A stretch of DNA of 64,000 nucleotides, from NCBI RefSeq assembly GCF_058153355.1, contig NZ_CM177019.1. One strand, given 5' to 3'. The position numbers and the translations under genes are program-made. Every line of letters begins with the position of its first letter. Position 1 is the stretch's first letter. The notes beneath the pieces were generated by a model. That model was not told the DNA's origin. It saw only the letters and a program-made list of their open reading frames with translations, and ran no database searches. Positions 19,537-47,382 of this stretch are shown piece after piece.

Positions 19537-19621
19537 GGTGGGGTTCCCGAGCGGCCAAAGGGAGCAGACTGTAAATCTTCCGTCATCGACTTCGAAGGTT
19601 CGAATCCTTCCCCCACCACCA
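19537..19621 (+). tRNA. tyrT: tRNA-Tyr (anticodon GUA), variant copy with G-to-T change in the 3' strand of the anticodon stem at 19579
   Basis: 85-nt sequence ending CCA; identical to the second copy except one base (UCUUC instead of UCUGC). Confidence 0.85.
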
Positions 19622-19655
19622 TCTCAAGCATTACATCAAAATTTGAATTATCCCT

Positions 19656-19740
<85 letters not shown>

Positions 19741-19985
19741 TCACTTTCAAAAACCCCTGTATTCTCCAACGAATCCGTAACTGAATATTCTGCCCATACG
19801 GGGAAGGATGAGAAGCTTCGACTAAGGTTCGACTCGAGCGCCAGCGAGAGAGCGTTGCCGCAGGCAACGACCCGTAGGGCGAAGCGCGCAGCGCTGAGTA
19901 ATCCTTCCCCCACCACCATCACTTTCAAAAACCCCTGTATTCTCCAACGAATCCGTAACTGAATATTCTGCCCATACGGGGAAGG

Positions 19986-20075
19986 ATGAGAAGCTTCGAC
20001 CAAGGTTCGACTCGAGCGCCAGCGAGAGAGCGTTGCCGCAGGCAACGACCCGTAGGGCGAAGCGCGCAGCGCTGA
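19986..20075 (+). CDS. tpr: protamine-like Arg-rich 29-aa peptide (tpr-type ORF, repeat unit 2)
   Basis: [38 protein letters not shown] inside the repeat unit. Confidence 0.45.
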
Positions 20076-20163
20076 GTAATCCTTCCCCCACCACCATCAC
20101 TTTCAAAAGTTCCTGAAATCCCCAACAAATCCGCAATTAAATATTCTGCCCATACGGGGAAGG

Positions 20164-20253
20164 ATGAGAAACTTCGACCAAGGTTCGACTCGAGCGCCAG
20201 CGAGAGAGCGTTGCCGCAGGCAACGACCCGTAGGGCGAAGCGCGCAGCGCTGA
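20164..20253 (+). CDS. tpr: protamine-like Arg-rich 29-aa peptide (tpr-type ORF, repeat unit 3)
   Basis: [32 protein letters not shown]; same frame and position within the repeat unit. Confidence 0.4.
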
Positions 20254-20341
20254 GTAATCCTTCCCCCACCACCATCACTTTCAAAAGTTCCTGAAATCCC
20301 CAACAAATCCGCAATTAAATATTCTGCCCATACGGGGAAGG

Positions 20342-20431
20342 ATGAGAAACTTCGACCAAGGTTCGACTCGAGCGCCAGCGAGAGAGCGTTGCCGCAGGCA
20401 ACGACCCGTAGGGCGAAGCGCGCAGCGCTGA
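20342..20431 (+). CDS. tpr: protamine-like Arg-rich 29-aa peptide (tpr-type ORF, repeat unit 4)
   Basis: identical to the unit 3 ORF. Confidence 0.4.
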
Positions 20432-20620
20432 GTAATCCTTCCCCCACCACCATCACACCTTTAAATACTCAAAACCTGTTACTTCAAGCTAATTTGCCCC
20501 GTGGCACCGCGTTTTCCGGACCTACAATATCCTCCCCTGTAGGTCAGATAAGCGAATCACTCCGCACCGTGCCCATAAAAAAACCCCGCCGAAGCAGGGT
20601 CTATGTGAACTAAAATTCGC

Positions 20621-27675: not shown

Positions 27676-29067
27676 TTATTTTTTAGAATGCCGACCATAT
27701 ACCGCCCAGGTAATCACTACGCAGGCGATATAGAAAATCAAAAATACTTTCATTGCGCCGACTGGCGAACCCGTTAATGCCAGCGAGCTACCGAACGCTT
27801 TCGGGATAAAGAAGCCACCAATCGCGCCAATCGCAGAGATGAAACCCAGCGCCGCCGCCGTGTCGGTTGCCGCTTCACGCATCGCACGTTCGTCAGAGCC
27901 CCCTTCTGCTTTCACGCGATCCATTGTCAGTTTACGGAAGATCACGGAAATCATCTGAAAAGTGGAACCACTACCCAGCCCAGCTGTCAGGAACAGCGCC
28001 AGGAAGACTGCGAAGAACGCCATGAAGCTTCCGCCCTGTCCGTCAGTCGGTAAGGTCAGGAACAGCAGGCCGCTGAAAATCGCCATCAGGATAAAGTTCA
28101 CCAGTGTGACACGAGTTCCGCCCAGACGGTCAGATAATGCACCACCTGCAGAACGCGCCAGCGCACCAATAAACGGCCCGAAGAAAGCGTATTGCAGAAT
28201 CTGAACATCCGGGAACTGCGTTTTTGACAGCATCGCAAAGCCCGCGGAGAAGCCGATGAAGGAGCCGAAGGTTGCCAGATACAGCAGGCTCATAATCCAC
28301 AGATGACCCCGTTTGAGTACCGGCAACTGCTCCTTGATGGAGGCTTTCGAGGTAGCAAGATCGTTCATGCCAAACCACGCCGCAATGGTGAAGATGGCAA
28401 GGAACGGCACCCATACCCAGGACGCATTCGCCAGATACAGCTCAGTCCCATCCGGCTGTTTGACACCCTGGCTACCAAATACTGCGAAAATCGACAGTGA
28501 TACCACCAGCGGAGCAACCAACTGCATGACGCTGACGCCCATGTTGCCCAGACCACCATTCAGACCCAGCGCGCCACCCTGCTTCTGTTTCGGAAAGAAG
28601 AAGCTGATGTTTGCCATACTGGATGCGAAGTTCGCGCCAGCAAAGCCGCACAGCAGAGAGATGATGATGAAGACGCTATAAGGCGTGGAGGTATCCTGCA
28701 CGGCAAAACCCAGCCAGACACAAGGAATAATCAGAATACCAGTGCTGAACGCCGTCCAGCGACGACCACCGAAGATAGGAACCATAAAGGAGTATGGAAC
28801 ACGTAATAACGCGCCAGAAACCGAAGGCAGCGCAGTCAACATAAATAGCTGATCGGTCGTAAAATTAAAACCGACTTTCGGTAAGTGCACCGCAACAGCG
28901 CTGAACAACATCCATACGCAAAACGCCAGCAGCAGACAGGGAACGGAAATCCACAGGTTGCGGCTGGCAATACGTTGACCGCGTTGTTGCCAGAACGCAG
29001 GATCTTCCGGTCGCCAATCTGTAATGACAGCTCCAGTAGCCCTTTCGGGGGCGGATGAGTGACTCAT
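27676..29067 (-). CDS. narK: nitrate/nitrite antiporter NarK (MFS)
   Basis: ORF 27676..29073; second ATG gives 463 aa MSHSSAPERATGAV...; hydrophobic MFS-like. Confidence 0.92.
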   Translation of the reverse strand: MSHSSAPERATGAVITDWRPEDPAFWQQRGQRIASRNLWISVPCLLLAFCVWMLFSAVAVHLPKVGFNFTTDQLFMLTALPSVSGALLRVPYSFMVPIFGGRRWTAFSTGILIIPCVWLGFAVQDTSTPYSVFIIISLLCGFAGANFASSMANISFFFPKQKQGGALGLNGGLGNMGVSVMQLVAPLVVSLSIFAVFGSQGVKQPDGTELYLANASWVWVPFLAIFTIAAWFGMNDLATSKASIKEQLPVLKRGHLWIMSLLYLATFGSFIGFSAGFAMLSKTQFPDVQILQYAFFGPFIGALARSAGGALSDRLGGTRVTLVNFILMAIFSGLLFLTLPTDGQGGSFMAFFAVFLALFLTAGLGSGSTFQMISVIFRKLTMDRVKAEGGSDERAMREAATDTAAALGFISAIGAIGGFFIPKAFGSSLALTGSPVGAMKVFLIFYIACVVITWAVYGRHSKK

Positions 29068-29126
29068 AGACACCTCTGATACTCGTTTCGATGTCTGCCA
29101 CCTTAGTGTCTGTAGCTAAAGGCAAT

Positions 29127-29140
29127 TTGATGTAAATCAA
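29127..29140. promoter_or_regulatory. FNR box TTGAT-GTAA-ATCAA in narK promoter (proximal)
   Basis: perfect FNR consensus about 65 bp upstream of the narK start. Confidence 0.65.
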
Positions 29141-29164
29141 ACGATAAGATAACTTTATCTATCA

Positions 29165-29178
29165 TTGATATTTATCAT
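29165..29178. promoter_or_regulatory. second FNR-like box TTGAT-ATTT-ATCAT in narK promoter (distal)
   Basis: 9/10 match to FNR consensus, centred 38 bp upstream of the proximal site. Confidence 0.55.
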
Positions 29179-29405
29179 TACCCATAGTGAGTACAGTGAT
29201 TTCATAAAAATTATGAGATTTTTCACGGTGCTGTAAAATCCCTACTCTTACCGATGTAAAGCGACTAACCACGCGGCAAATAAGGAGTAACTCTTTCCGG
29301 GTATGGGTATACTTCAGCCAATAGCCGAGAATACTGCCATTCCAGAATGTATCGTCACATTCATTAAGGTTATTGCTCATTTAAAGCCTGAAGGAAGAGG
29401 TTTAC

Positions 29406-31202
29406 ATGCTTAAACGTTGTCTCTCTCCGCTCACCCTGGTTAATCAGGTTGCGCTTATTGTGTTGCTTTCTACTGCTATTGGACTGGCGGGGATGGCGGT
29501 TTCTGGCTGGCTGGTACAAGGCGTTCAGGGCAGCGCCCATGCGATCAACAAAGCGGGATCGCTGCGCATGCAAAGTTACCGTCTGTTGGCGGCAGTGCCA
29601 TTAAGCGAGAAAGACAAGCCCTTAATTAAAGAGATGGAACAAACGGCATTTAGCGCCGAGTTAACCCGAGCAGCAGAACGAGACGGACAACTGGCGCAAC
29701 TACAGGGTTTACAAGATTACTGGCGTAATGAGCTGATCCCTGCGCTGCTGCGTGCACAAAACCGCAAAACGGTGTCAGCGGATGTCAGCCAGTTTGTTGC
29801 CGGGCTTGATCAACTGGTATCTGGTTTTGACCGCACCACGGAAATGCGCATTGAGACAGTGGTGCTGGTCCATCGGGTAATGGCGGTATTTATGGCACTT
29901 TTACTGGTGTTCACTATTATCTGGTTGCGGGCGCGACTGCTACAACCGTGGCGGCAGTTGTTGGCAATGGCGAGTGCCGTCAGCCATCGCGATTTTACCC
30001 AACGCGCGAACATCAGCGGGCGCAACGAAATGGCTATGCTTGGAACTGCGTTGAACAATATGTCTGCAGAACTGGCGGAAAGTTACGCCGTACTTGAGCA
30101 GCGGGTTCAGGAGAAAACCGCCGGGCTGGAACATAAAAATCAGATCCTCTCTTTTTTATGGCAGGCCAACCGCCGTTTGCATTCCCGCGCCCCGCTGTGT
30201 GAACGCCTGTCACCTGTACTCAACGGCTTACAGAATTTAACCCTGCTACGTGATATCGAACTGCGGGTGTATGACACTGATGATGAAGAGAATCATCAGG
30301 AGTTTACCTGCCAGCCAGATATGACCTGCGATGATAAAGGCTGTCAGCTCTGCCCGCGCGGTGTACTCCCCGTTGGCGATCGCGGCACAACCCTGAAGTG
30401 GCGGCTGGCTGACTCTCATACGCAGTACGGTATTTTGCTGGCAACCCTGCCGCAGGGGCGTCATCTTAGTCATGATCAACAACAACTGGTGGATACCCTG
30501 GTTGAACAACTCACCGCCACGCTTGCGCTGGATCGCCATCAGGAACGTCAGCAACAGTTGATCGTGATGGAAGAGCGTGCCACCATTGCGCGCGAACTGC
30601 ATGATTCTATTGCCCAATCTCTCTCTTGCATGAAGATGCAGGTGAGTTGTTTACAGATGCAGGGCGATGCGCTGCCAGAAAGCAGCCGCGAACTGTTAAG
30701 TCAGATCCGTAACGAACTGAATGCATCCTGGGCGCAGTTGCGTGAATTGCTCACCACATTCCGCTTGCAGCTCACCGAGCCTGGATTACGTCCGGCGCTG
30801 GAGGCGAGTTGCGAAGAGTACAGCGCCAGGTTTGGCTTCCCGGTGAAGCTGGATTATCAATTGCCGCCTCGTCTGGTGCCTTCGCATCAGGCAATCCATC
30901 TGTTGCAAATTGCCCGTGAGGCATTAAGTAACGCCCTCAAACATTCGCAAGCGAGTGAGGTCGTGGTGACAGTGGCGCAAAACGATAATCAGGTCAAACT
31001 GACCGTCCAGGATAACGGCTGCGGCGTGCCTGAAAATGCCATCCGCAGCAATCACTACGGCATGATAATAATGCGCGACCGTGCGCAAAGTTTACGGGGC
31101 GATTGCCGCGTCCGCCGTCGTGAATCAGGTGGCACCGAAGTGGTGGTCACCTTTATTCCCGAAAAAACTTTCACAGACGTCCAAGGAGATACCCATGAGT
31201 AA
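29406..31202 (+). CDS. narX: nitrate/nitrite sensor histidine kinase NarX
   Basis: 598-aa ORF with N-terminal transmembrane/periplasmic sensing region and C-terminal HATPase-like region. Confidence 0.95.
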
Positions 31203-31845
31203 TCAGGAACCGGCTACTATCCTGCTGATTGACGATCACCCGATGCTGCGAACTGGCGTAAAACAGCTTATCAGTATGGCACCAGATATCACCGTGGTTG
31301 GCGAAGCGAGTAATGGCGAACAGGGTATTGAACTGGCGGAGTCTCTTGATCCCGATTTGATCTTGTTAGATCTCAATATGCCCGGCATGAACGGTCTGGA
31401 AACGCTGGATAAACTGCGCGAAAAGTCCCTCTCCGGGCGCATTGTGGTATTCAGCGTCTCTAACCATGAAGAAGATGTGGTCACCGCACTGAAACGCGGC
31501 GCGGATGGCTATCTGTTAAAAGATATGGAACCGGAAGATCTGCTGAAAGCATTGCATCAGGCTGCTGCTGGCGAAATGGTATTAAGCGAAGCATTAACGC
31601 CTGTTCTGGCCGCCAGCTTGCGCGCTAACCGTGCCACTACTGAACGCGATGTTAACCAGTTAACCCCACGCGAGCGCGATATTCTCAAGCTGATTGCCCA
31701 GGGTTTGCCGAACAAGATGATTGCCCGCCGCCTGGACATCACCGAAAGCACAGTAAAAGTGCACGTCAAGCACATGCTGAAGAAAATGAAGCTCAAGTCT
31801 CGCGTGGAAGCAGCAGTATGGGTGCATCAGGAGCGCATTTTCTGA
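31195..31845 (+). CDS. narL: nitrate/nitrite response regulator NarL
   Basis: 216-aa product from ATG 31195 ([22 protein letters not shown]...), receiver domain plus LuxR-type HTH; overlaps narX end by 8 bp. Confidence 0.95.
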
Positions 31846-33303
<1,458 letters not shown>

Positions 33304-33314
33304 ACTTTTGTCGC

Positions 33315-33367
<53 letters not shown>

Positions 33368-33425
33368 TTGCAGAAGCAGTAAGATAGAAGATAAGTGTCT
33401 AATTCCCTGAATACAGGAGTAAATA

Positions 33426-33779
33426 ATGCAAAAAATCGTGATCGTTGCCAATGGCGCACCTTACGGGAGCGAATCCTTGTTTAACAGCTTGCGGCTGGCC
33501 ATTGCGTTACGAGAGCAGGAGAACAATCTGGATCTGCGTCTGTTCCTGATGTCTGATGCGGTCACAGCCGGGTTGCGCGGGCAAAAACCAGGGGAAGGCT
33601 ACAACATTCAGCAAATGCTGGAGATCCTTACCGCTCAGAATGTACCGGTGAAATTGTGCAAAACCTGTACCGACGGGCGCGGGATTAGTACACTTCCTCT
33701 GATTGATGGGGTGGAAATCGGTACTCTTGTGGAACTGGCGCAATGGACGCTGTCAGCCGATAAAGTGCTCACATTTTAA
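33426..33779 (+). CDS. ychN: DsrE/DsrF-like family protein YchN
   Basis: 117-aa ORF MQKIVIVANGAPYGSESLFNSLRLAIAL... Confidence 0.85.
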   Translation: MQKIVIVANGAPYGSESLFNSLRLAIALREQENNLDLRLFLMSDAVTAGLRGQKPGEGYNIQQMLEILTAQNVPVKLCKTCTDGRGISTLPLIDGVEIGTLVELAQWTLSADKVLTF

Positions 33780-33822
33780 TGTTTGAGGGGGCGTCTGACG
33801 CCCCACTATGAGGGAAGTTTAC

Positions 33823-34518
33823 TCAGACGAATCCCGGCCGTAACACACCATCCGGATAATTCTCCGCCAGCAGTTTTTTTACCGATACCAGCAAATCATT
33901 CAGCCCATCGTCCTGCATTCCCAGTTTGATAAGCTCCTGTTCCAGTGAAAACAGGTATTGTGCGTTGGTTCCCAGTGGACCGCTCGCCGCCGCAATCAAC
34001 GGCGCGATGACCTGAGCGCGAGTGTCAGATTCATATTCTGGATGTCGTGGGTCCATAATAAACACAATGGCGTTTACTGTGCGTCCATCATCAAGATCAA
34101 GCTGACACCAGGTTGGCAGATAACAGCCGGTAATCATCTCGCGCTTCCACAACAGGGTTAGTTCCTGCTCCAGCGTCTCTTCTGGCAGTCGATAGGCGAC
34201 GCCTGTGGTGCGTCCGCCCTCTTTCAGTGCAAGCATCCGTCCCGGCTGGTGCGCAGTCCCGCGCCCGGCGGTCAGGCGCAGGCAAAACGCGCGATGCCAT
34301 CCAACCAGTGTACCGGTGCACGACTCGGTAAACTCCAGTGCCGGATTCCACATCAACGATCCATAACCGAAGATCCACACCGGTCCCTCATCAGGTCGAC
34401 AAGCCAGCGTCGCCGCCAGCGAAGCCGCCCGTTGCTCTGCTGACCATAAGAGTGATTCTTCAATGGCACCAAATGCCGTTTTACAATCGGCATTCATCAA
34501 GAAATCACGCGTTATCAC
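33823..34518 (-). CDS. chaC: glutathione-specific gamma-glutamylcyclotransferase ChaC
   Basis: ORF 33823..34554; GTG at 34518 gives 231 aa; contains the FGYGSL motif typical of the ChaC family. Confidence 0.8.
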   Translation of the reverse strand: MITRDFLMNADCKTAFGAIEESLLWSAEQRAASLAATLACRPDEGPVWIFGYGSLMWNPALEFTESCTGTLVGWHRAFCLRLTAGRGTAHQPGRMLALKEGGRTTGVAYRLPEETLEQELTLLWKREMITGCYLPTWCQLDLDDGRTVNAIVFIMDPRHPEYESDTRAQVIAPLIAAASGPLGTNAQYLFSLEQELIKLGMQDDGLNDLLVSVKKLLAENYPDGVLRPGFV

Positions 34519-34674
34519 CTTACACCTCCGCCACTGCATACTTCCCTGCGACAACTTTTTGGTGTCTTCCGGACATTTTACTGCTCATTTTGAAACCATT
34601 AACGGGACAATATGCAATCCACGGACCACTTGCAAGGCAACACCGCACGAATAGCTTTAACTAAGCTACCGGTT

Positions 34675-34905
34675 TTACGATTTTTTATGCCATTTATCAT
34701 CATCCCCTTTGGCATATTCATGCTTCACAGCAGCCCAGGCCACTTTATGCGCGGTTTCTTCGCGACTGGCGTCATCACGCCGATCTTCTTTATCTTTATA
34801 TTGATCCCATGCGCTGTTGAACGCTTCTTTATAGATATCCTGAGCATGAGACGGTAGCACGTGCTTTACGCTTTCCGGCAGATCGCTTTTCGTTTTATAC
34901 GGCAT
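34675..34905 (-). CDS. chaB: cation transport regulator ChaB
   Basis: 76-aa ORF MPYKTKSDLPESVKHVLPSHAQDIYKEAFNSAWDQYKD... Confidence 0.9.
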   Translation of the reverse strand: MPYKTKSDLPESVKHVLPSHAQDIYKEAFNSAWDQYKDKEDRRDDASREETAHKVAWAAVKHEYAKGDDDKWHKKS

Positions 34906-35174
34906 CGTTGACTCCTTTTACAAAGTTGAACATTAAGTGTGGTCAACAATATCCACTCTTGCCAAAACATAAGAATTTTCATGTCAGACTCTTCTTAAGA
35001 AACGCTAAAACAAACATTGTCTAAACGCATTGCTTATTTTTATGGCCCGATGAGTAAAAAATCGACAGCGGGGTAAAAATTCGTAAAATGTTGCCGATAT
35101 CCAGACACTTTCTGTTATTTTTCCTACCTATTTTTTACATTTTCGATAAATTCATCTGCAAAGGGATAACCATA

Positions 35175-36275
35175 ATGTCAAATGCTCAAGAGGCGGTAAA
35201 AACCCGCCACAAGGAGACTTCGCTTATTTTCCCGGTTCTGGCGCTGGTAGTGCTGTTCCTGTGGGGAAGCAGTCAGACACTACCAGTGGTCATTGCCATC
35301 AACCTTCTTGCACTTATTGGTATTTTAAGTAGCGCCTTTAGTGTTGTCCGTCATGCGGACGTATTAGCCCATCGCCTGGGAGAACCTTACGGTTCGCTTA
35401 TTCTTAGCCTTTCAGTGGTTATTCTTGAAGTCAGTTTGATTTCAGCTCTAATGGCAACTGGCGACGCCGCACCGACGCTAATGCGTGATACGCTCTATTC
35501 AATCATTATGATTGTTACCGGTGGGCTGGTTGGCTTTTCATTATTGTTGGGCGGTCGTAAGTTTGCCACCCAATATATGAATCTGTTTGGTATCAAGCAG
35601 TATTTAATTGCGCTGTTCCCCCTGGCGATAATCGTACTGGTATTTCCAATGGCTCTGCCTGCGGCGAATTTTTCAACCGGTCAGGCGTTACTGGTAGCAT
35701 TAATTTCTGCGGCAATGTATGGTGTATTTTTGCTGATCCAGACCAAAACGCATCAAAGTTTGTTTGTCTACGAGCACGAAGATGACAGTGATGATGACGA
35801 CCCGCATCACGGTAAACCGTCTGCCCATAGCAGCCTGTGGCATGCTATCTGGTTGATTGTCCATCTGATTGCTGTTATTGCAGTCACCAAAATGAACGCC
35901 AGCCCGCTGGAGACTTTGCTCGACAGCATGAATGCCCCTGTCGCCTTTACTGGCTTCCTGGTGGCACTGTTGATTCTGTCGCCGGAAGGTTTAGGTGCGT
36001 TAAAAGCAGTGTTGAACAACCAGGTCCAGCGCGCGATGAATCTGTTCTTTGGTTCAGTGTTAGCAACCATTTCGCTTACCGTACCTGTCGTCACGCTAAT
36101 TGCCTTTATGACGGGTAACGAATTGCAGTTTGCACTTGGTGCGCCAGAAATGGTGGTGATGGTGGCCTCTTTAGTGCTGTGCCATATCTCCTTCTCCACC
36201 GGACGTACTAACGTGCTCAATGGCGCAGCGCATCTGGCACTGTTTGCCGCCTATTTGATAACGATATTTGCCTGA
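35175..36275 (+). CDS. chaA: Ca2+/H+ (Na+/H+) antiporter ChaA
   Basis: ORF 35088..36275; internal ATG at 35175 gives 366 aa MSNAQEAVKTRHKETSLIFPVLALVV...; multi-pass membrane protein. Confidence 0.9.
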   Translation: MSNAQEAVKTRHKETSLIFPVLALVVLFLWGSSQTLPVVIAINLLALIGILSSAFSVVRHADVLAHRLGEPYGSLILSLSVVILEVSLISALMATGDAAPTLMRDTLYSIIMIVTGGLVGFSLLLGGRKFATQYMNLFGIKQYLIALFPLAIIVLVFPMALPAANFSTGQALLVALISAAMYGVFLLIQTKTHQSLFVYEHEDDSDDDDPHHGKPSAHSSLWHAIWLIVHLIAVIAVTKMNASPLETLLDSMNAPVAFTGFLVALLILSPEGLGALKAVLNNQVQRAMNLFFGSVLATISLTVPVVTLIAFMTGNELQFALGAPEMVVMVASLVLCHISFSTGRTNVLNGAAHLALFAAYLITIFA

Positions 36276-36567
36276 CAGTTATATCTCCTCCGATGACGAA
36301 AATCGGGGGAGATAATATAAATTCCTGCTTATTGTATTTCTTCATACTACCTGAACAGGTCGTTAATCAGAATTGCGAGCCTGTACCACAACCTGCACTA
36401 AACCACTGCAACAGCTGTTGAAAAGCCGGAATGTACTCTTTATTGCAAACATTTCAGGGATGAAGTGAAGATGAATTGAGACGTAATATCCACACCAAGC
36501 CGGCGTTATCCGGTGAGGCGCAATGTTGCGGGGGCTTTATCCCTGGTGGCATTGGTTGCTGGAAAGA

Positions 36568-36633
36568 GAAAACCCCCGCACGTTGAGAGGTAAAACCTGA
36601 CAACAGAACGGGGGCTAATCTTGAACCATCAAC
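36568..36633 (-). ncRNA. rdl: Rdl-type antisense RNA (antitoxin of ldr), copy 1, approximate coordinates
   Basis: placed by the known ldr/rdl geometry (rdl lies antisense in the ldr 5' leader, about 48 bp upstream of the ldr start); region contains a GC-rich hairpin CCCCCGCACG...; no ORF. Confidence 0.45.
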
Positions 36634-36680
36634 AATTCAAGAATAGCCGCAAAATGTTGTCATTACAACAAGGCGGCTAT

Positions 36681-36788
36681 ATGACGCTCGCGCAGTTTGC
36701 CATGACTTTCTGGCACGACCTGGCAGCACCGATCCTGGCGGGGATTATTACCGCAGTGATTGTCAGCTGGTGGCGTAACCGGAAGTAA
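36681..36788 (+). CDS. ldr: Ldr-family small toxic membrane peptide (35 aa)
   Basis: ATG..TAA ORF MTLAQFAMTFWHDLAAPILAGIITAVIVSWWRNRK, followed by hairpin and T-run terminator. Confidence 0.8.
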   Translation: MTLAQFAMTFWHDLAAPILAGIITAVIVSWWRNRK

Positions 36789-37102
36789 GGTGAAAACGGG
36801 CGTCAGGCTGCCGTGATGGCAATATGCGCCCGAAACCGGCCGCAGGGGTAACAGCCTGCGGCCCTTTTTGTCTTTATCTCTTCTGCAAATAAATATTGGC
36901 AACCCGAGCTGGAAGCATCATCCAGAGCACTCATGAAACGACTGTAACAACTGTTGAAAAACCGGAATGCACTCTTCATTGCAAACATTTCAGGGATGAA
37001 GTGAAGATGAATTGAGACGTAGTATCCACACCAAGCCGGCGTTATCCGGTGAGGCGCAATGTTGCGGGGGCTCTATCCCTGGTGGCATTGGTTGCTGGAA
37101 AG

Positions 37103-37168
37103 AGAAAACCCCCGCACGTTGAGAGGTACAACCTGACAACAGAACGGGGGCTAATCTTGAAACCAGAC
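37103..37168 (-). ncRNA. rdl: Rdl-type antisense RNA, copy 2, approximate coordinates
   Basis: same position within LDR unit 2 as copy 1. Confidence 0.45.
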
Positions 37169-37215
37169 ACTTCAAGAATAGCCGCAAAATGTTGTCATTA
37201 CAACAAGGCGGCTAT

Positions 37216-37323
37216 ATGACGCTCGCGCAGTTTGCCATGACTTTCTGGCACGACCTGGCAGCACCGATCCTGGCGGGAATTATTACCGCAGCGATTGTCA
37301 GCTGGTGGCGTAACCGGAAGTAA
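37216..37323 (+). CDS. ldr: Ldr-family small toxic membrane peptide (35 aa), copy 2
   Basis: ORF MTLAQFAMTFWHDLAAPILAGIITAAIVSWWRNRK (V27A relative to copy 1). Confidence 0.8.
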   Translation: MTLAQFAMTFWHDLAAPILAGIITAAIVSWWRNRK

Positions 37324-37486
37324 GGTGAAAACGGGCGTCAGGCTGCCGTGATGGCAATATGCGCCCGAAACCGGCCGCAGGGGTAACAGCCTGCGGCCTT
37401 TTTTGTATCCGGCCCCATGAAAAAAGCCTTAACGCAGAATGGACTGACCCATAACGCTAAGGCTTTTGTTTTCAAACAAAAAAAGA

Positions 37487-38350
<864 letters not shown>

Positions 38351-38376
38351 TTAATCTTGAGTAAAATGTCGATTAA

Positions 38377-39186
38377 TTAATGCAGCACAATATGTTTATG
38401 CGCGATGTTATTTATTTGCGCACGGATCATTTCGCTGATCGGGTCTTCCGGACACTGTTCAACGAAATAACTTAAATCGTTCAACGCAACGTGTTCGCAA
38501 TCCAGTTGCGCATAAATCAACCCGCGATCGCGAATTTCATAGGGATCTTCCGGGTTGAATTGTAATAATGCTTCGCTGGTACGTAGCGCCAGCTCCATCT
38601 GATTTTCTTCCATCAACGAAGCTTTGAGTGTATCCAGCAATTTGCGGATTACCTCAATGTTATCAGCTTCATCAAGGTCTTCATAAAACAGTTCCGCCGA
38701 CGGGCTGATATTTCCCTTTAACCATACGTCCAGCATATGTTCGCTTAACGATTCACCGTTAAAAGGATTAATCAGCCAAATTTCGCCATCCGGACATTCA
38801 ATGCGCAATATCAGCTGCGTAGGGAAAATCACCGGCAGCAGCGGCAAATCGAGACGATTCGCGACCCATAATAAAACGGCACCTAATGATACGGCACTGC
38901 CCTGTCGATTCTTTAACACCTGGTCCAGCCATAATGCATCGGAAAGACGATAAACGCCGCGTGAGGCTTTAAATCCCCAGTCGCCGTAAAACAGCGCGAT
39001 CAGTTTTTCCAGCTGCTCTTCTAAAGGCAGAAGCTGGCTGATTTCTTCCTTCGCCAGAGTAACGAGACGCTCCAGTTCGTCGTAAACATCTTGCGAGGGA
39101 AAATCGCGGCGGATTGCTTCGCAAGCCAGGATCATGCCTTCGCACAATGGCGCTTTATTAAATTCGAAATCAGCTAACGATCTCAT
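38377..39186 (-). CDS. sirB1: SirB1/YchA, transglutaminase-like/TPR protein
   Basis: 269-aa ORF; position between kdsA and sirB2. Confidence 0.8.
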   Translation of the reverse strand: MRSLADFEFNKAPLCEGMILACEAIRRDFPSQDVYDELERLVTLAKEEISQLLPLEEQLEKLIALFYGDWGFKASRGVYRLSDALWLDQVLKNRQGSAVSLGAVLLWVANRLDLPLLPVIFPTQLILRIECPDGEIWLINPFNGESLSEHMLDVWLKGNISPSAELFYEDLDEADNIEVIRKLLDTLKASLMEENQMELALRTSEALLQFNPEDPYEIRDRGLIYAQLDCEHVALNDLSYFVEQCPEDPISEMIRAQINNIAHKHIVLH

Positions 39187-39189
39187 GAC

Positions 39190-39582
39190 TTACCCCAGTA
39201 ACGGTACTTTTGTGGTGGCGAGTTTAATGATGATGTACAGCACCACCAACGCCAGCGGGAAGGCAATAATGCGCGCCTGCTGACTGTGCATACGACGATA
39301 ATCGAGTGCAATAAAACCCAAAACGATATAAATGATAACTCCAAACAGCTTTTCAGTCAGCCACTGTGCCTGCCCGGAAAATGGCAGGATGTGCGCTTTA
39401 GCCATCAACGCAATGCCGCTTAACAATAACACCGTATCGACAACCGGCGGCACAATGCGCGTCCAACGAGCAAATGCCTGTGGATGCTTCTGATAACGTA
39501 GCCAGAAACGTAAGGTTAATAGCCCTACAGAAAGCGCAATGCTAATGAGATGAACGCTAAGCAGTGTAGAAAAACTTGTCAT
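39190..39582 (-). CDS. sirB2: SirB2/YchQ small inner membrane protein
   Basis: 130-aa hydrophobic ORF. Confidence 0.8.
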   Translation of the reverse strand: MTSFSTLLSVHLISIALSVGLLTLRFWLRYQKHPQAFARWTRIVPPVVDTVLLLSGIALMAKAHILPFSGQAQWLTEKLFGVIIYIVLGFIALDYRRMHSQQARIIAFPLALVVLYIIIKLATTKVPLLG

Positions 39583-40412
39583 TGATAATAGCGGCCGAGC
39601 GTTACGCGCTCGTTATCACCATAGTCCCGACAGGTTTCGACGTCATGATATCCCGCGTGGATAAATGCCTGTCGCACCGCTTCGCCCTGCTGCCAGCCAT
39701 GTTCCAGAAGCAGAAAGCCGCCGGATACCAGCGCGTTACGCGACTGTTCAATGATATGCACGATGTCTGCCATTCCACTGTCTGCCGCAACCAGCGCAGT
39801 GAGTGGCTCAAAGCGGACATCGCCTTGTTGAAGATGTGGGTCCTGCTCGTCAATATACGGCGGATTACTGACAATCATCGCAAACTGCTGCCCGGCTAGC
39901 GCGCTAAACCAGTCGCTTTGCAGAATATGGATATTTTTGATCGCCAGATGCCGGGCATTACGTTGCGCCAGAGAGACAGCATCTGGCATACGATCTACAG
40001 CGGTAATTTCAGAGTCCGGGCGCTCGCTAGCCAGCGCCAGCGCAATCGCCCCGGTACCCGTCCCGAGATCGAGAATACGGCAAGGCTGTTCAGGCAACCG
40101 CGCCAGTGCCTGCTCCACCAGACACTCCGTATCCGGGCGCGGAATTAAGGTCGCTGGCGAAACAAATAACGGCAGCGACCAGAATTCTCGCACCCCGGTT
40201 AAATGAGCAATAGGTTCACCATCGCGACGACGCGTCAGTAGCGCATCAAGTTGCTGACATTGTTCGTCAGTCAGCTGCGTTTCACCAAAGGCGAGAATAA
40301 AAGTACGCCCTTTGCCGGTAACATGCTCCAGCAGGATTTCAGCATCACGCCGCGGGCTTTCGCTCGCCTGAAGTTGGCTTATTGCTTCACGTAACCAGTG
40401 TTGATATTCCAT
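39579..40412 (-). CDS. prmC: release factor glutamine N5-methyltransferase PrmC (HemK)
   Basis: 277-aa ORF with SAM-binding GTGTG motif and NPPY catalytic motif. Confidence 0.93.
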   Translation of the reverse strand: MEYQHWLREAISQLQASESPRRDAEILLEHVTGKGRTFILAFGETQLTDEQCQQLDALLTRRRDGEPIAHLTGVREFWSLPLFVSPATLIPRPDTECLVEQALARLPEQPCRILDLGTGTGAIALALASERPDSEITAVDRMPDAVSLAQRNARHLAIKNIHILQSDWFSALAGQQFAMIVSNPPYIDEQDPHLQQGDVRFEPLTALVAADSGMADIVHIIEQSRNALVSGGFLLLEHGWQQGEAVRQAFIHAGYHDVETCRDYGDNERVTLGRYYQ

Positions 40413-41494
40413 TATTCCTGCTCGGACAACGCCGCCAGTTGGTCGGCCTGATGTTCCTGGATAATCGGTTCAATCAGCATATCCAGCTTACCTTCCATCA
40501 CTTCATCCAGACGGTAGAGCGTCAGGTTGATGCGGTGATCGGTAACGCGCCCCTGCGGGAAATTGTAAGTACGGTTACGGTCGCTGCGATCGCCACTCCC
40601 CAGCAGGTTACGACGGGTAGACGCTTCGGCCTGTTGCCGTTTTGCCATTTCTGCAGCGTGGATGCGAGCACCAAGTACAGAAAGTGCTTTAGCTTTGTTT
40701 TTATGTTGTGAACGTTCGTCCTGACATTCAACAACAATCCCGGTCGGCAAGTGAGTAATACGAATTGCCGAATCGGTGGTGTTAACGTGCTGACCACCCG
40801 CCCCTGACGAGCGGAAAGTATCAATGCGCAAATCTGCTGGGTTGATGTCCGGCAGTTCTGCGTCAGGCAGTTCTGGCATTACCGCAACGGTACAAGCAGA
40901 AGTATGAATTCGACCCTGCGATTCCGTAGCAGGCACACGCTGCACGCGATGACCGCCAGATTCGAATTTCAAACGACCATATACACCATCACCGCTAATT
41001 TTGGCGATGATCTCTTTATAGCCACCATGTTCACCCTCGCTGGCGCTCATGATTTCTACACGCCAGCGGCGGGCTTCGGCGTAACGGCTGTACATACGGA
41101 ACAGATCGCCAGCGAAGAGCGCCGCTTCGTCGCCGCCGGTTCCGGCACGGACTTCGAGGAAGGCGTTACGTTCGTCATCAGGATCTTTTGGTAGTAACAG
41201 AACCTGTAATTGCTGTTCCAGTTGCTCGCTTTTTTCTTTAGCTTCGCGCAGTTCATCCTGCGCCATCTCACGCATTTCAGGATCGTCGAGCATCATCTGT
41301 GCGGTTTCGATATCTTCCTGAACCTGTTGCCAGTCGGTAAAACAGCGCGAAACATCACTTAACTGCGCATATTCGCGTGATAATGCGCGAAAACGTTCCT
41401 GGTCGGCGATAGTTTGCGCGTCACCCAGCAATGCCTGAACTTCTTCATGGCGTTCATGCAGGGCTTCCAGTTTGGCAACGATAGAAGGCTTCAT
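40412..41494 (-). CDS. prfA: peptide chain release factor 1
   Basis: 360-aa ORF with GGQ motif ([15 protein letters not shown]) and PxT-type recognition region. Confidence 0.97.
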
Positions 41495-41535
41495 AGGCGT
41501 AAATGCACCCTGTAAAAAAAGAAAATGATGTACTG

Positions 41536-42792
41536 CTACTCCAGCCCGAGGCTGTCGCGCAGAATATTCAGGCGTTCGTTATCCCCATCACGGGCAGCCT
41601 GTTGAAGTGATTTCGTTGGCGCATGGATCAGGCGGTTAGTCAGTTTCCATGCCAGATCCTGCATAATGGCTTGCGCGTCGCCGCCCTGCTCAAGGGCTGC
41701 TAACGCTTTGGCGGTTAACTCATCGCGAACTTGCTCTGCCTGGCTGCGATACTCGCGAATGGTTTCGCTGGCACTTTGTGCACGCAGCCAGGCCATAAAT
41801 TCGCTGGTTTCCTGAGCGACGATAGTTTCCGCCTCAACTGCGGCAGCTTTACGTTGCGCCAGGTTATGCGAAATAATGCTTTGCAGATCGTCAACACTAT
41901 AAAGGTAAGCATTCGCCAGTTTGCCAACTTCCGGCTCAACATCGCGCGGAACGGCAATATCTACCAACAGCATCGGTTGGTTGCGACGGCTTTTTAATGC
42001 GCGCTCCACCATGCCTTTACCGATAATCGGCAACGGACTGGCGGTAGAACTAATGATGATATCGGCTTCGCGCAGACGTTCGTCAATATCGCTCAAGGCA
42101 ATCACTTCTGCGCCGACTTCATCTGCCAGAATTTGGGCGCGTTCGCGAGTACGGTTGGCGATAATCATCTTCTGTACTTTGTGTTCACGTAGATGACGCG
42201 CCACCAGCTCGATGGTTTCGCCCGCACCCACCAGCAGTACCGTCACCGTAGAGAGCGATTCAAAGATCTGACGCGCCAGCGTACAAGCCGCAAAAGCGAC
42301 AGACACAGCGCTGGCACCGATATCGGTTTCAGTGCGAACGCGTTTCGCGACAGAGAAAGATTTCTGGAACATGCGTTCCAGTTCGCTGGCCTTCATATGG
42401 CCTTTTTGCGAATCGGCAAACGCCTTTTTAACCTGACCGAGGATCTGCGGTTCCCCCAGAACCAGTGAATCCAGGCCGCTGGCAACACGCATTAAATGGC
42501 TAACTGCATCGTTATCCTGATGCCAGTAGAGGCTTTTACGCAGATCGTCTTCATTGAGATTATGGTAATCGCAAAGCCAGCGGATTAACGCCTCTTGCAG
42601 GTTATCCTGCTCTTCAACGCTAAGATAAAGTTCTGTGCGGTTACACGTCGACAGTACCACGCCGCCCTGCACCATCGGCTGCGCAAGCAGGCTGTCAAGC
42701 GCCTGATCGAGCTTATCCGGCGAAAACGATACACGTTCTCGCAGCGATACAGGAGCCGTTTTATGGTTGATACCGAGTGCTAAAAGGGTCAT
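41536..42792 (-). CDS. hemA: glutamyl-tRNA reductase
   Basis: ORF 41536..42990; ATG at 42792 gives 418 aa [21 protein letters not shown]... Confidence 0.93.
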
Positions 42793-42936
42793 GTCTGCGG
42801 GAAATAATACCAACGTTGATAGGGTTAGTCTGCTCGCATCATACAGGATGCGCGAGATCAATAAAAGAGAGTGCCCCCTTTTGGAGTAATTGCCGAAAGC
42901 CGTTAGATTCTGGCAATTAAGACAACTTGAACATAG

Positions 42937-43628
<692 letters not shown>

Positions 43629-43629
<1 letters not shown>

Positions 43630-44480
43630 TGCGGACACAGTGGCCCTCTCCGGCAAAACTTAATCTGTTTTTATACATTACCGGTCAGCGTTCGGACGGT
43701 TACCACACGCTGCAAACGCTGTTTCAGTTCCTGGATTACGGCGACACCATCAGCATTGAGCTTCGTGACGATGGGGATATTCGTCTGTTAACCCCCGTTG
43801 AAGGCGTGGAACATGAAGATAACCTGATCGTTCGCGCAGCACGGTTGCTGATGAAAACAGCAGCCGCCAGCGGGCGTCTTCCTACGGGAAGCGGTGCAGA
43901 AATCAGTATTGACAAGCGTTTGCCGATGGGCGGCGGTCTGGGTGGTGGTTCATCCAATGCCGCGACGGTGCTGGTGGCATTAAACCATCTCTGGCAATGC
44001 GGGCTAAGCATTGATGAACTGGCGGAAATGGGGCTGACGCTGGGCGCAGATGTTCCTGTCTTTGTTCGGGGGCATGCCGCGTTTGCCGAAGGCGTTGGTG
44101 AAATACTAACGCCGGTGGATCCGCCAGAGAAGTGGTACTTGGTGGCGCACCCTGGTGTAAGTATTCCGACACCGGTGATTTTTAAAGATCCTGAACTCCC
44201 GCGCAATACGCCAAAAAGGTCAATAGAAACGTTGCTAAAATGTGAATTCAGCAATGATTGCGAGGTTATCGCAAGAAAACGTTTTCGCGAGGTTGATGCG
44301 GTGCTTTCCTGGCTGTTAGAATACGCCCCGTCGCGCCTGACTGGGACAGGGGCCTGTGTCTTTGCTGAATTTGATACAGAGTCTGAAGCCCGCCAGGTGC
44401 TAGAGCAAGCCCCGGAATGGCTCAATGGCTTTGTGGCGAAAGGCGTTAATCTTTCCCCATTGCACAGAGCCATGCTTTAA
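43629..44480 (+). CDS. ispE: 4-diphosphocytidyl-2-C-methyl-D-erythritol kinase
   Basis: 283-aa ORF with GHMP kinase motif [14 protein letters not shown]. Confidence 0.95.
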
Positions 44481-44504
44481 GCCGGGCAAGCTGAGTTTCG
44501 GTGA

Positions 44505-45578
<1,074 letters not shown>

Positions 45579-45595
45579 TCGAACCCGGCTCAAAG

Positions 45596-45618
45596 ACCCG
45601 CTGCGGCGGGTTTTTTTG
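45596..45618 (+). terminator. prs rho-independent terminator
   Basis: CCCGC-TGCG-GCGGG hairpin followed by TTTTTTTG. Confidence 0.6.
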
Positions 45619-45702
45619 TCTGTAATATCCATTTGTATGACCTATGCCTCCTTCACCTGCCATTTAGTTGACAGATGATGCGCTCACGGATGAAACATTA
45701 TT

Positions 45703-47382
45703 GTGAACAAAATATTTTCCTCACATGTGATGCCTTTCCGCGCTCTGATCGACGCTTGCTGGAAAGAAAAATATACTGCCGCACGGTTTACCCGTGACCT
45801 GATTGCCGGGATAACCGTCGGGATTATTGCTATCCCGCTGGCAATGGCGTTAGCTATTGGTAGTGGTGTGGCACCCCAGTACGGTTTATATACCGCAGCT
45901 GTTGCGGGGATTGTCATTGCTCTGACGGGGGGGTCACGCTTTAGCGTTTCCGGTCCGACTGCGGCATTTGTGGTAATTCTCTATCCCGTTTCGCAACAGT
46001 TTGGACTGGCAGGACTGCTGGTCGCGACACTCATGTCAGGTGTCTTTTTGATCCTGATGGGGCTGGCACGTTTTGGACGCTTGATTGAATATATTCCGGT
46101 TTCCGTGACCTTAGGTTTCACCTCGGGTATCGGGATCACCATCGGTACCATGCAGATTAAAGATTTTCTCGGTCTGCAAATGGCCCATGTCCCGGAGCAT
46201 TATCTACAAAAAGTCGGCGCATTATTTATGGCGTTGCCGACCATTAATGTGGGTGATGCTGCCATTGGCATTGTGACGCTTGGCATTCTGGTTTTCTGGC
46301 CGCGTCTGGGCATTCGTTTGCCTGGTCACCTTCCGGCCTTGCTGGCTGGTTGCGCGGTGATGGGAATTGTTAACCTGCTCGGCGGACATGTTGCTACCAT
46401 CGGTTCGCAATTCCACTACGTCCTGGCCGATGGTACTCAGGGTAACGGTATTCCGCAACTGCTGCCACAGCTGGTACTGCCGTGGGACCTGCCTAATTCA
46501 GAATTCACGCTAACCTGGGATTCTATTCGCACACTGCTGCCTGCGGCATTCTCAATGGCAATGCTCGGCGCAATCGAATCTCTGCTCTGCGCCGTGGTAC
46601 TGGATGGTATGACCGGAACGAAACACAAAGCGAACAGCGAACTGGTTGGACAGGGACTGGGGAATATCATCGCCCCGTTCTTTGGTGGTATTACCGCTAC
46701 AGCTGCCATCGCGCGTTCTGCCGCTAACGTCCGTGCCGGGGCAACTTCCCCTATCTCGGCGGTGATTCACTCTATTCTGGTTATTCTTGCCCTGCTGGTA
46801 CTGGCACCGCTGCTCTCCTGGCTACCACTTTCCGCTATGGCTGCCCTGTTATTGATGGTGGCGTGGAACATGAGTGAAGCGCATAAAGTGGTCGATTTGC
46901 TTCGTCATGCGCCAAAAGATGACATCATCGTCATGCTACTGTGTATGTCATTGACTGTGCTGTTTGATATGGTTATTGCCATCAGTGTGGGGATCGTGTT
47001 GGCATCGCTGCTGTTTATGCGTCGTATCGCGCGTATGACTCGCCTGGCCCCAGTAGTCGTAGACGTTCCAGACGATGTCCTGGTTCTGCGCGTTATTGGC
47101 CCGCTGTTCTTTGCTGCGGCTGAAGGCCTGTTCACGGACCTCGAGTCACGCCTCGAAGGCAAGCGGATTGTCATTCTGAAGTGGGATGCCGTTCCGGTGC
47201 TTGATGCTGGTGGCCTTGATGCGTTCCAGCGTTTTGTGAAGCGTCTGCCCGAAGGATGTGAACTCCGCGTGTGTAACGTGGAATTCCAGCCGCTGCGCAC
47301 TATGGCTCGCGCAGGGATTCAACCGATCCCGGGACGCCTGGCGTTCTTCCCGAATCGTCGCGCGGCGATGGCGGATTTATAA
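45703..47382 (+). CDS. dauA: SulP-family C4-dicarboxylate transporter DauA (YchM)
   Basis: 559-aa ORF, SulP-type membrane domain plus C-terminal STAS domain. Confidence 0.9.

Follow-up and report, generated by a model that had tools for sequence, protein, structure and literature searches.

Two tandem ldr/rdl type I toxin-antitoxin units between chaA and kdsA, very probably a natural two-copy allele of the LDR locus

Introduction

The interval between chaA and kdsA carries tandem LDR units, each of which pairs a small toxin gene (ldr) with an antisense RNA gene (rdl). K-12 has three such units at this position, and only two are found in the 64,000-nucleotide stretch of contig NZ_CM177019.1 (RefSeq assembly GCF_058153355.1) analysed here, hereafter the window. 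This raises the question of whether the window holds a natural two-copy allele or an array shortened in assembly, and whether both of its units are complete type I modules.

LdrD and LdrA are toxic if overproduced, LdrA is located in the inner membrane and causes a rapid drop in ATP, and RdlD represses the translation of ldrD, with RNase III cutting the ldrD/rdlD duplex (PMC4147584, PMC7373196, PMC8309996, PMC12643268). How Rdl blocks translation is described as unresolved in reviews up to 2021, the leading idea being that a leader ORF, ldrX, is linked to ldr by translational coupling, in the manner of mok and hok. The locus, the peptides, the Rdl RNAs and the copy-number variation described below are all known already from public annotation or the literature.

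Results

Repeat architecture

Two LDR units, U1 and U2, lie head to tail in the chaA-kdsA interval (36365-37406) with a period of 536/535 bp (Table 1). The direct repeat pair formed by 36365-36625 and 36901-37161 has a spacing of 536 and a 90% match, and that formed by 36632-36871 and 37167-37406 has a spacing of 535 and a 98% match, the shift in spacing being due to one indel near 36628. Core limits were set by aligning U1 and U2 with the LDR units present in K-12, UTI89 and strain 2020CK-00188; the two cores, of 476 nt each, show 22 differences including one 1-nt indel, or about 95% identity. The preliminary description of near-identical units of about 536 bp is therefore accurate as to the period but overstates the identity. 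A spacer of about 60 nt (36874-36933) separates the cores and is missing at the outer edges of the array. The longest period handled by Tandem Repeats Finder is 500, so that the array is out of its range. Head-to-tail units of about 500-540 bp flanked by chaA and kdsA are the arrangement that marks an LDR locus, and the earlier assignment of two ldr/rdl type I units to this interval is upheld by Pfam, Rfam, homologous loci in RefSeq and alignment to K-12. The alignment to ldrA-C/rdlA-C, which had been proposed as a check, confirms the identity of the units.

Table 1. Features of the chaA-kdsA region, with positions as numbered in the window
Feature	Position	Strand	Basis
chaA, Na+/K+:H+ antiporter, left flank	35175..36275	+	366-aa ORF (from MSNAQEAV); named chaA in homologous loci
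LDR unit 1 (U1), chaA-proximal; conserved core 36398-36873	36365..36900	+	direct repeats, unit alignment
ldr-1 -10 box TAATAT (inferred), mRNA start near 36496	36484..36489	+	conserved hexamer
Putative ldr-1 mRNA, ~375 nt: 184-nt 5′ UTR, CDS, structured 3′ UTR, terminator	36497..36871	+	MFE; predicted ends
rdl-1 antisense RNA gene, 66-67 nt	36567..36633	-	Rfam RF01813 83.6 bits; hairpin fold; own minus-strand terminator
Predicted rdl-1 promoter: -35 TTGTAA 36668-36663, 17-nt spacer, -10 TATTCT 36645-36640	36640..36668	-	read from sequence
GUUGUCA, Shine-Dalgarno (36672-36676) and start codon; predicted partner 36797-36825	36654..36690	+	MFE, pair counts
ldr-1 CDS, 35 aa, MTLAQFAMTFWHDLAAPILAGIITAVIVSWWRNRK (T9, V26)	36681..36788	+	ORF; Pfam PF13940 E 1.7e-25
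3′ UTR segment complementary to SD/start region (predicted anti-SD)	36797..36825	+	MFE, pair counts
ldr-1 intrinsic terminator	36838..36871	+	9-bp GC stem and T run
LDR unit 2 (U2), kdsA-proximal; conserved core 36934-37408	36901..37408	+	direct repeats, unit alignment
ldr-2 -10 box TAGTAT (inferred), mRNA start near 37032	37020..37025	+	conserved hexamer
rdl-2 antisense RNA gene, 66 nt	37103..37168	-	Rfam RF01813 90.1 bits; fold z -4.55
ldr-2 CDS, 35 aa, MTLAQFAMTFWHDLAAPILAGIITAAIVSWWRNRK (T9, A26)	37216..37323	+	ORF; Pfam PF13940
ldr-2 intrinsic terminator	37373..37406	+	9-bp GC stem and T run
kdsA, right flank	37487..38341	-	284-aa ORF; annotation in homologous loci

Between the U2 terminator and the kdsA stop codon (37420-37486), the window has additional bases relative to K-12 and UTI89. 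These are a 15-nt AATGGACTGACCCAT-type insertion inside a hairpin downstream of kdsA, which is common to the window and strain 2020CK-00188 and accounts for the alignment of most E. coli genomes just to query position 1207-1240 of 1301.

Copy number among complete genomes

The annotation of K-12 (NC_000913.3) bears out the three units expected there, in the order kdsA, ldrA/rdlA, ldrB/rdlB, ldrC/rdlC, chaA; in every unit the rdl gene is found 48-114 nt upstream of the toxin gene. By the order of the units, U1 is the positional counterpart of LDR-C and U2 that of LDR-A. To count units per locus, the K-12 chaA-kdsA interval was used as query and the 5,440 matching records were sampled at even steps down their ranking. 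Among the resulting 59 complete E. coli chromosomes, three units are found in 27, two in 17, one in 14 and four in 1, and the match spans agree with these counts (about 2001, 1466, 931 and 2193 bp for three, two, one and four units, respectively). The two-unit loci include all three O157:H7 chromosomes in the sample. The RefSeq annotation likewise lists one to four Ldr-family toxin genes between chaA and kdsA, depending on the complete E. coli genome. The two-unit interval of the window was rejected as a query for copy number as it undercounts three-unit genomes, giving two units for strain 720632 versus three with the K-12 query. The two-copy state is thus one of several common alleles of the LDR locus, an ordinary copy-number variant present in about three in ten of the sampled genomes.

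These counts bear on the concern, raised in the preliminary description, that the assembler collapsed three or more true units to two. Such a collapse could be imagined for 535-bp units that exceed the length of short reads and share about 95% identity, at a locus where K-12 and about 46% of the sampled complete genomes have three units, but the comparison speaks against it. Strain 2020CK-00188, the closest complete genome at the locus, has exactly two units with matching unit-specific variants, at 4 differences from U1 and 2 from U2. Over 18 kb (28000-46000), the best match among 5,426 complete E. coli genomes has 99.0% identity, and the three best matches are colinear with the window and of the same length. 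The 22 differences between U1 and U2 suffice to keep the units apart in assembly, and neither unit looks chimeric beyond the mosaicism found in all strains compared. As two-unit loci are common in finished genomes and the closest genome has the same two units, a collapse is very improbable.

The variable sites are shared between the units of the window and those of K-12 in a mosaic pattern, such as gene conversion and unequal crossing-over within a tandem array would produce. Copy numbers of two and three would differ by the gain or loss of a 535-bp unit through unequal recombination between units, and gene conversion would shuffle the polymorphic sites among them, including residues 9, 26 and 29 of the peptide and the loop and 5′ tail of Rdl.

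Tandem two-unit LDR arrays also occur in Escherichia whittamii (spacing about 539 bp), Escherichia sp. E1V33 (about 518 bp) and Kluyvera cryocrescens (about 465 bp), which indicates that tandem duplication of LDR happened, or was kept, in several lineages. An LDR-D-like fragment on a 503-bp contig (coverage 0.66) labelled Bacillus sp. EB106-08-02-XG196 is almost certainly enterobacterial contamination of that assembly. A second tandem array lies elsewhere in the window, at 19537-20456. Two tRNA-Tyr(GTA) genes (19537-19621 and 19656-19740) precede a 178-bp unit that is repeated 4.1 times in tandem, and its copies match Rfam RtT with 133-134 bits each. The whole is the tyrT-tyrV-rtT operon. K-12 has about three rtT repeats, and the operon may be a second copy-number-variable array in the window.

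Ldr peptides

Both peptides match the Ldr toxin family (Pfam PF13940, Ldr_toxin) over residues 1-35 of 35 (89.2 and 89.9 bits, cut-off 27; E about 1e-25), and a search of NCBIfam with the two peptides returned no model match. Both also align over their whole length (residues 1-35; E 5e-11 for ldr-1) with LdrD, whose NMR structure is PDB 5LBJ. The signature of the Fst/Ldr peptides is a transmembrane helix with PXXXG, a conserved tryptophan and a charged C-terminus (PMC7472228), and both window peptides carry it as P17-I-L-A-G21 within the helix, W30-W31, and R32-N-R-K35.

The peptide sequences given in the preliminary description hold, whereas its placing of a V/A difference at residue 27 does not; the sole difference is at residue 26, encoded by GTG at 36756-36758 in ldr-1 and GCG at 37291-37293 in ldr-2. 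The coding sequences also have one synonymous difference (36743 G in ldr-1 versus A in ldr-2). Both peptides are widespread in the public protein collection, with exact matches to ldr-1 on at least 1000 contigs, named from Shigella sonnei and Enterobacteriaceae, and to ldr-2 on at least 999. With this naming, and with no more than 99.0% identity to the best-matching complete E. coli genome over 18 kb, the window may derive from a Shigella or from an E. coli lineage that has been sparsely sampled. Five other complete genomes with the T9/V26 peptide have two-unit loci and V26 in both units (I9/V26 followed by T9/V26). Residues 9 (I/T), 26 (A/V) and 29 (S/G) occur in varied combinations across the units compared, and a comparison between genera shows A, V, L or M at position 26. 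The V26/A26 difference thus appears to be a conservative and common polymorphism of the transmembrane helix, which is probably neutral and would not be expected to change function.

Rdl antisense RNAs

The GC-rich hairpin upstream of each ldr ORF, where the preliminary description expected the antisense RNA, is a minus-strand rdl gene. Rfam RF01813 (rdlD) matches both units over its full length (1-66 of 66; gathering score 50; E 1e-16 to 1e-19), and rdl-1 and rdl-2 are the only rdlD matches within the 64-kb window. The rdl genes lie opposite the region 49-114 nt upstream of the ldr ATGs and do not overlap the Shine-Dalgarno sequence or start codon, an arrangement that matches rdlA-C of K-12 in its geometry. 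Each predicted Rdl RNA forms a long hairpin (z -4.9 for rdl-1 and about -4.6 for rdl-2) and ends in its own terminator. The hexamers of the predicted rdl-1 promoter match the consensus at 8 of 12 positions, which is under the threshold of the promoter scanner.

U1 has a 1-nt insertion in the region encoding the Rdl 5′ end, by which the first ~7 nt of Rdl-1 are altered. The lower Rfam score of rdl-1 (83.6 versus 90.1 bits) is due to the first 5-6 nt, which differ, and to the inserted base. The U1 and U2 mRNAs differ mainly in two parts of the Rdl region, the apical loop of the hairpin (36593, A in U1 and C in U2) and the 5′ tail (36626-36635), both of which are typical recognition determinants of antisense RNAs.

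A second Rfam family, RF01794 sok (CssrC), gave sub-threshold matches to the ldr 5′ UTR at 36530-36683 and 37066-37218 on the plus strand. They cover the full 157-nt model with E about 0.002 and many non-canonical pairs, and with 27-28 bits against a gathering score of 59 they were rejected as probably due to chance.

Transcription signals and candidate leader ORFs

A scan of 36200-37550 for sigma-70 consensus promoters found nothing above threshold, and promoters are accordingly proposed from conservation and from the 8/12 hexamer matches read by eye. A TA[GA]NAT hexamer is kept in 42 of 42 units from six genera, the sequence upstream of it diverges, and the similarity of LDR-D to LDR-A/B/C begins at its position; the hexamer would fit the -10 box of the ldr promoter. 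Intrinsic terminators were found for all four predicted transcripts, two ldr and two rdl. The ldrD mRNA, as reportedly described by Kawano in 2002, is about 370 nt long, matching the length of the putative ldr-1 mRNA.

A conserved coding frame corresponding to ldrX was sought among the window and K-12 units and was not found. Within the Rdl target, these units share an invariant TTG with GGGGG in front of it; its reading frame varies. In U2 the TTG (37157) starts a 20-codon uORF of its own, and the stop codon of this uORF overlaps the ATG of ldr (ATGA). The same holds for K-12 ldrA, ldrB and ldrC, where a distinct 20-codon uORF also has ATGA at its end. In U1 the 1-nt insertion near 36628 brings the TTG (36621) into the ldr frame, by which a 55-aa N-terminally extended product becomes possible, and in K-12 ldrD it is in frame with the toxin through an indel different from that of U1. 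A GTG ORF reaches an ATGA overlap with ldr in U2 and K-12 ldrA, is interrupted by TAA in U1, ldrB and ldrC, and in ldrD forms an in-frame fusion with the toxin.

The in-frame TTG and the lower Rdl score of U1 are the features that would mark one unit, most plausibly U1, as a decaying or regulatory-variant copy that is no longer a working toxin-antitoxin pair, and an N-terminal His-tag is known to abolish the toxicity of LdrA (PMC8309996). This reading is most unlikely, since the experimentally toxic ldrD also has a TTG in frame with the toxin, and since the ORF, Rdl hairpin, terminators and mRNA fold of U1 are intact and the same as in U2. Moreover, UTI89 has the U1-type allele as its sole unit, and several complete genomes have it as their first. 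Taken together, the data indicate that the chaA-kdsA region of the window is very probably a natural two-copy allele of the LDR locus, with two complete ldr/rdl type I modules.

Predicted fold of the ldr mRNA

The ldr-1 mRNA has a minimum free energy of -165.9 kcal/mol (z -6.07 versus shuffled controls), and the ldr-2 mRNA fold has a z of -6.3. In the ldr-1 MFE fold, the region from the GUUGUCA element to the start of the coding sequence is predicted to pair with the 3′ UTR in three long-range helices: helix A (36654-36666 with 36813-36825), helix B (36672-36678, the Shine-Dalgarno, with 36806-36812) and helix C (36682-36690, from the start codon onward, with 36797-36805). Sequestration of the ldr ribosome-binding site by the 3′ UTR is thus predicted in both window units.

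For comparison, LDR-like units were found with a search pattern that covered just the base of the Rdl hairpin, and 35 distinct units from six genera were aligned, with sources including Citrobacter, Kluyvera, Pseudocitrobacter, Salmonella enterica subsp. arizonae and diarizonae, and Escherichia whittamii. The tested structure was itself derived from one member of this alignment. In every one of the 35 units, the 3′ UTR is able to pair with the Shine-Dalgarno and start codon (36672-36690 with 36797-36812 in the window). Across the 35 units, 88.5% of the pair cells of the whole fold are kept, versus 35-48% in controls with slid partners. For the three long-range helices (7-9), 87-92% of the cells are paired and six pairs are changed on both sides, for example C-G/U-G/U-A at one position and A-U/G-U/G-C/U-A at another; as the aligned units are related, these pair counts overstate the number of independent events.

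The GUUGYCA element (GUUGUCA at 36656-36662 in the window) has three mutually exclusive candidate partners: the 3′ UTR within 36813-36825; UGRCAAC (36598-36604), which lies within the Rdl target and is 98% paired (G-C 19, A-U 14); and a local RCAAC at 36665-36669 (98% paired; C-G 19, U-A 13). All three follow the same Y/R change. An RNAalifold consensus did not return the long-range helices and chose the upstream partner for GUUGYCA, and as it picked one partner, the three alternatives were counted separately. The segment 36663-36668, within the region of predicted mRNA pairing, coincides with the putative -35 box proposed for rdl. The presence of three mutually exclusive, covarying partners suggests that the ldr mRNA may adopt alternative conformations.

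Discussion

The organization of the two units suggests how each would function. The plus strand would give rise to a stable and highly structured ldr mRNA of about 375 nt, encoding a 35-aa single-pass inner-membrane peptide that in excess would lead to a collapse of ATP synthesis and to cell arrest or death. The minus strand would give rise to an Rdl of about 66 nt, with full complementarity to the part of the 5′ UTR that lies 49-114 nt ahead of the start codon. This RNA would prevent the translation of Ldr, and its duplex with the mRNA would be a substrate of RNase III. For the window units, toxicity, repression by the antisense RNA and cleavage by RNase III may be expected from their near-identity to the K-12 systems.

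As to how Rdl could act on translation from outside the ribosome-binding site, a tentative and rather doubtful reading of the modelled pairings is that the ldr mRNA is controlled by an RNA structural switch, instead of or besides the ldrX leader ORF. With such a switch, binding of Rdl would take away the upstream partner of GUUGYCA (36598-36604), upon which the ribosome-binding site could be locked closed. The conserved fold with its alternative pairings could guide work on the translation block by Rdl, and is the only part of the present analysis that might repay further work. The 35-aa ldr ORFs and the rdl genes are frequently overlooked by gene callers, and the practical value of the remainder lies in annotation; the tandem LDR repeat also deserves a flag in assembly comparisons.

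Among known systems, LDR-A/B/C of K-12 are like the window units in locus, flanks, unit architecture and period (535-536 bp), with 10-20 of 476 core positions differing. Unlike K-12, the window has two units, of which U1 carries V26, absent from K-12, and the 1-nt insertion in the Rdl 5′ region. The U2 peptide is one residue, and the U1 peptide two residues, apart from K-12 LdrA/C and LdrB. The T9 of LdrB and the S29 of LdrA/C are both present in the window peptides, and neither of the resulting combinations (T9/V26/S29 and T9/A26/S29) equals that of LdrA, LdrB or LdrC. The experimentally characterised ldrD-rdlD of K-12 has a 5′ UTR, Rdl region, 3′ UTR hairpin and terminator almost as in the window. 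It differs in its locus (bcsG-yhjV), its single copy and its clearly diverged peptide (phmmer E 5e-11), and shows no similarity to the window units upstream of the -10 box.

The hok/sok system of plasmid R1 and aapA1/IsoA1 of H. pylori are without sequence or family relationship to ldr/rdl, and the outline of regulation is alike. [quoted passage not shown] A further likeness to hok/sok-type regulation is the conserved long-range pairing predicted in the ldr mRNA, by which the 3′ UTR would sequester the Shine-Dalgarno and start codon. A mok-like coupled uORF is not conserved in frame in the ldr units. Within the Fst/Ldr superfamily, the window peptides share with Fst, the toxin of the par system of pAD1, the PXXXG motif (P17-G21), tryptophan after the transmembrane helix (W30/W31) and a basic C-terminus (RNRK). 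The two differ in the position of the antisense RNA, which overlaps the 3′ end of the toxin gene in Fst and the 5′ UTR in Ldr (PMC2887945).
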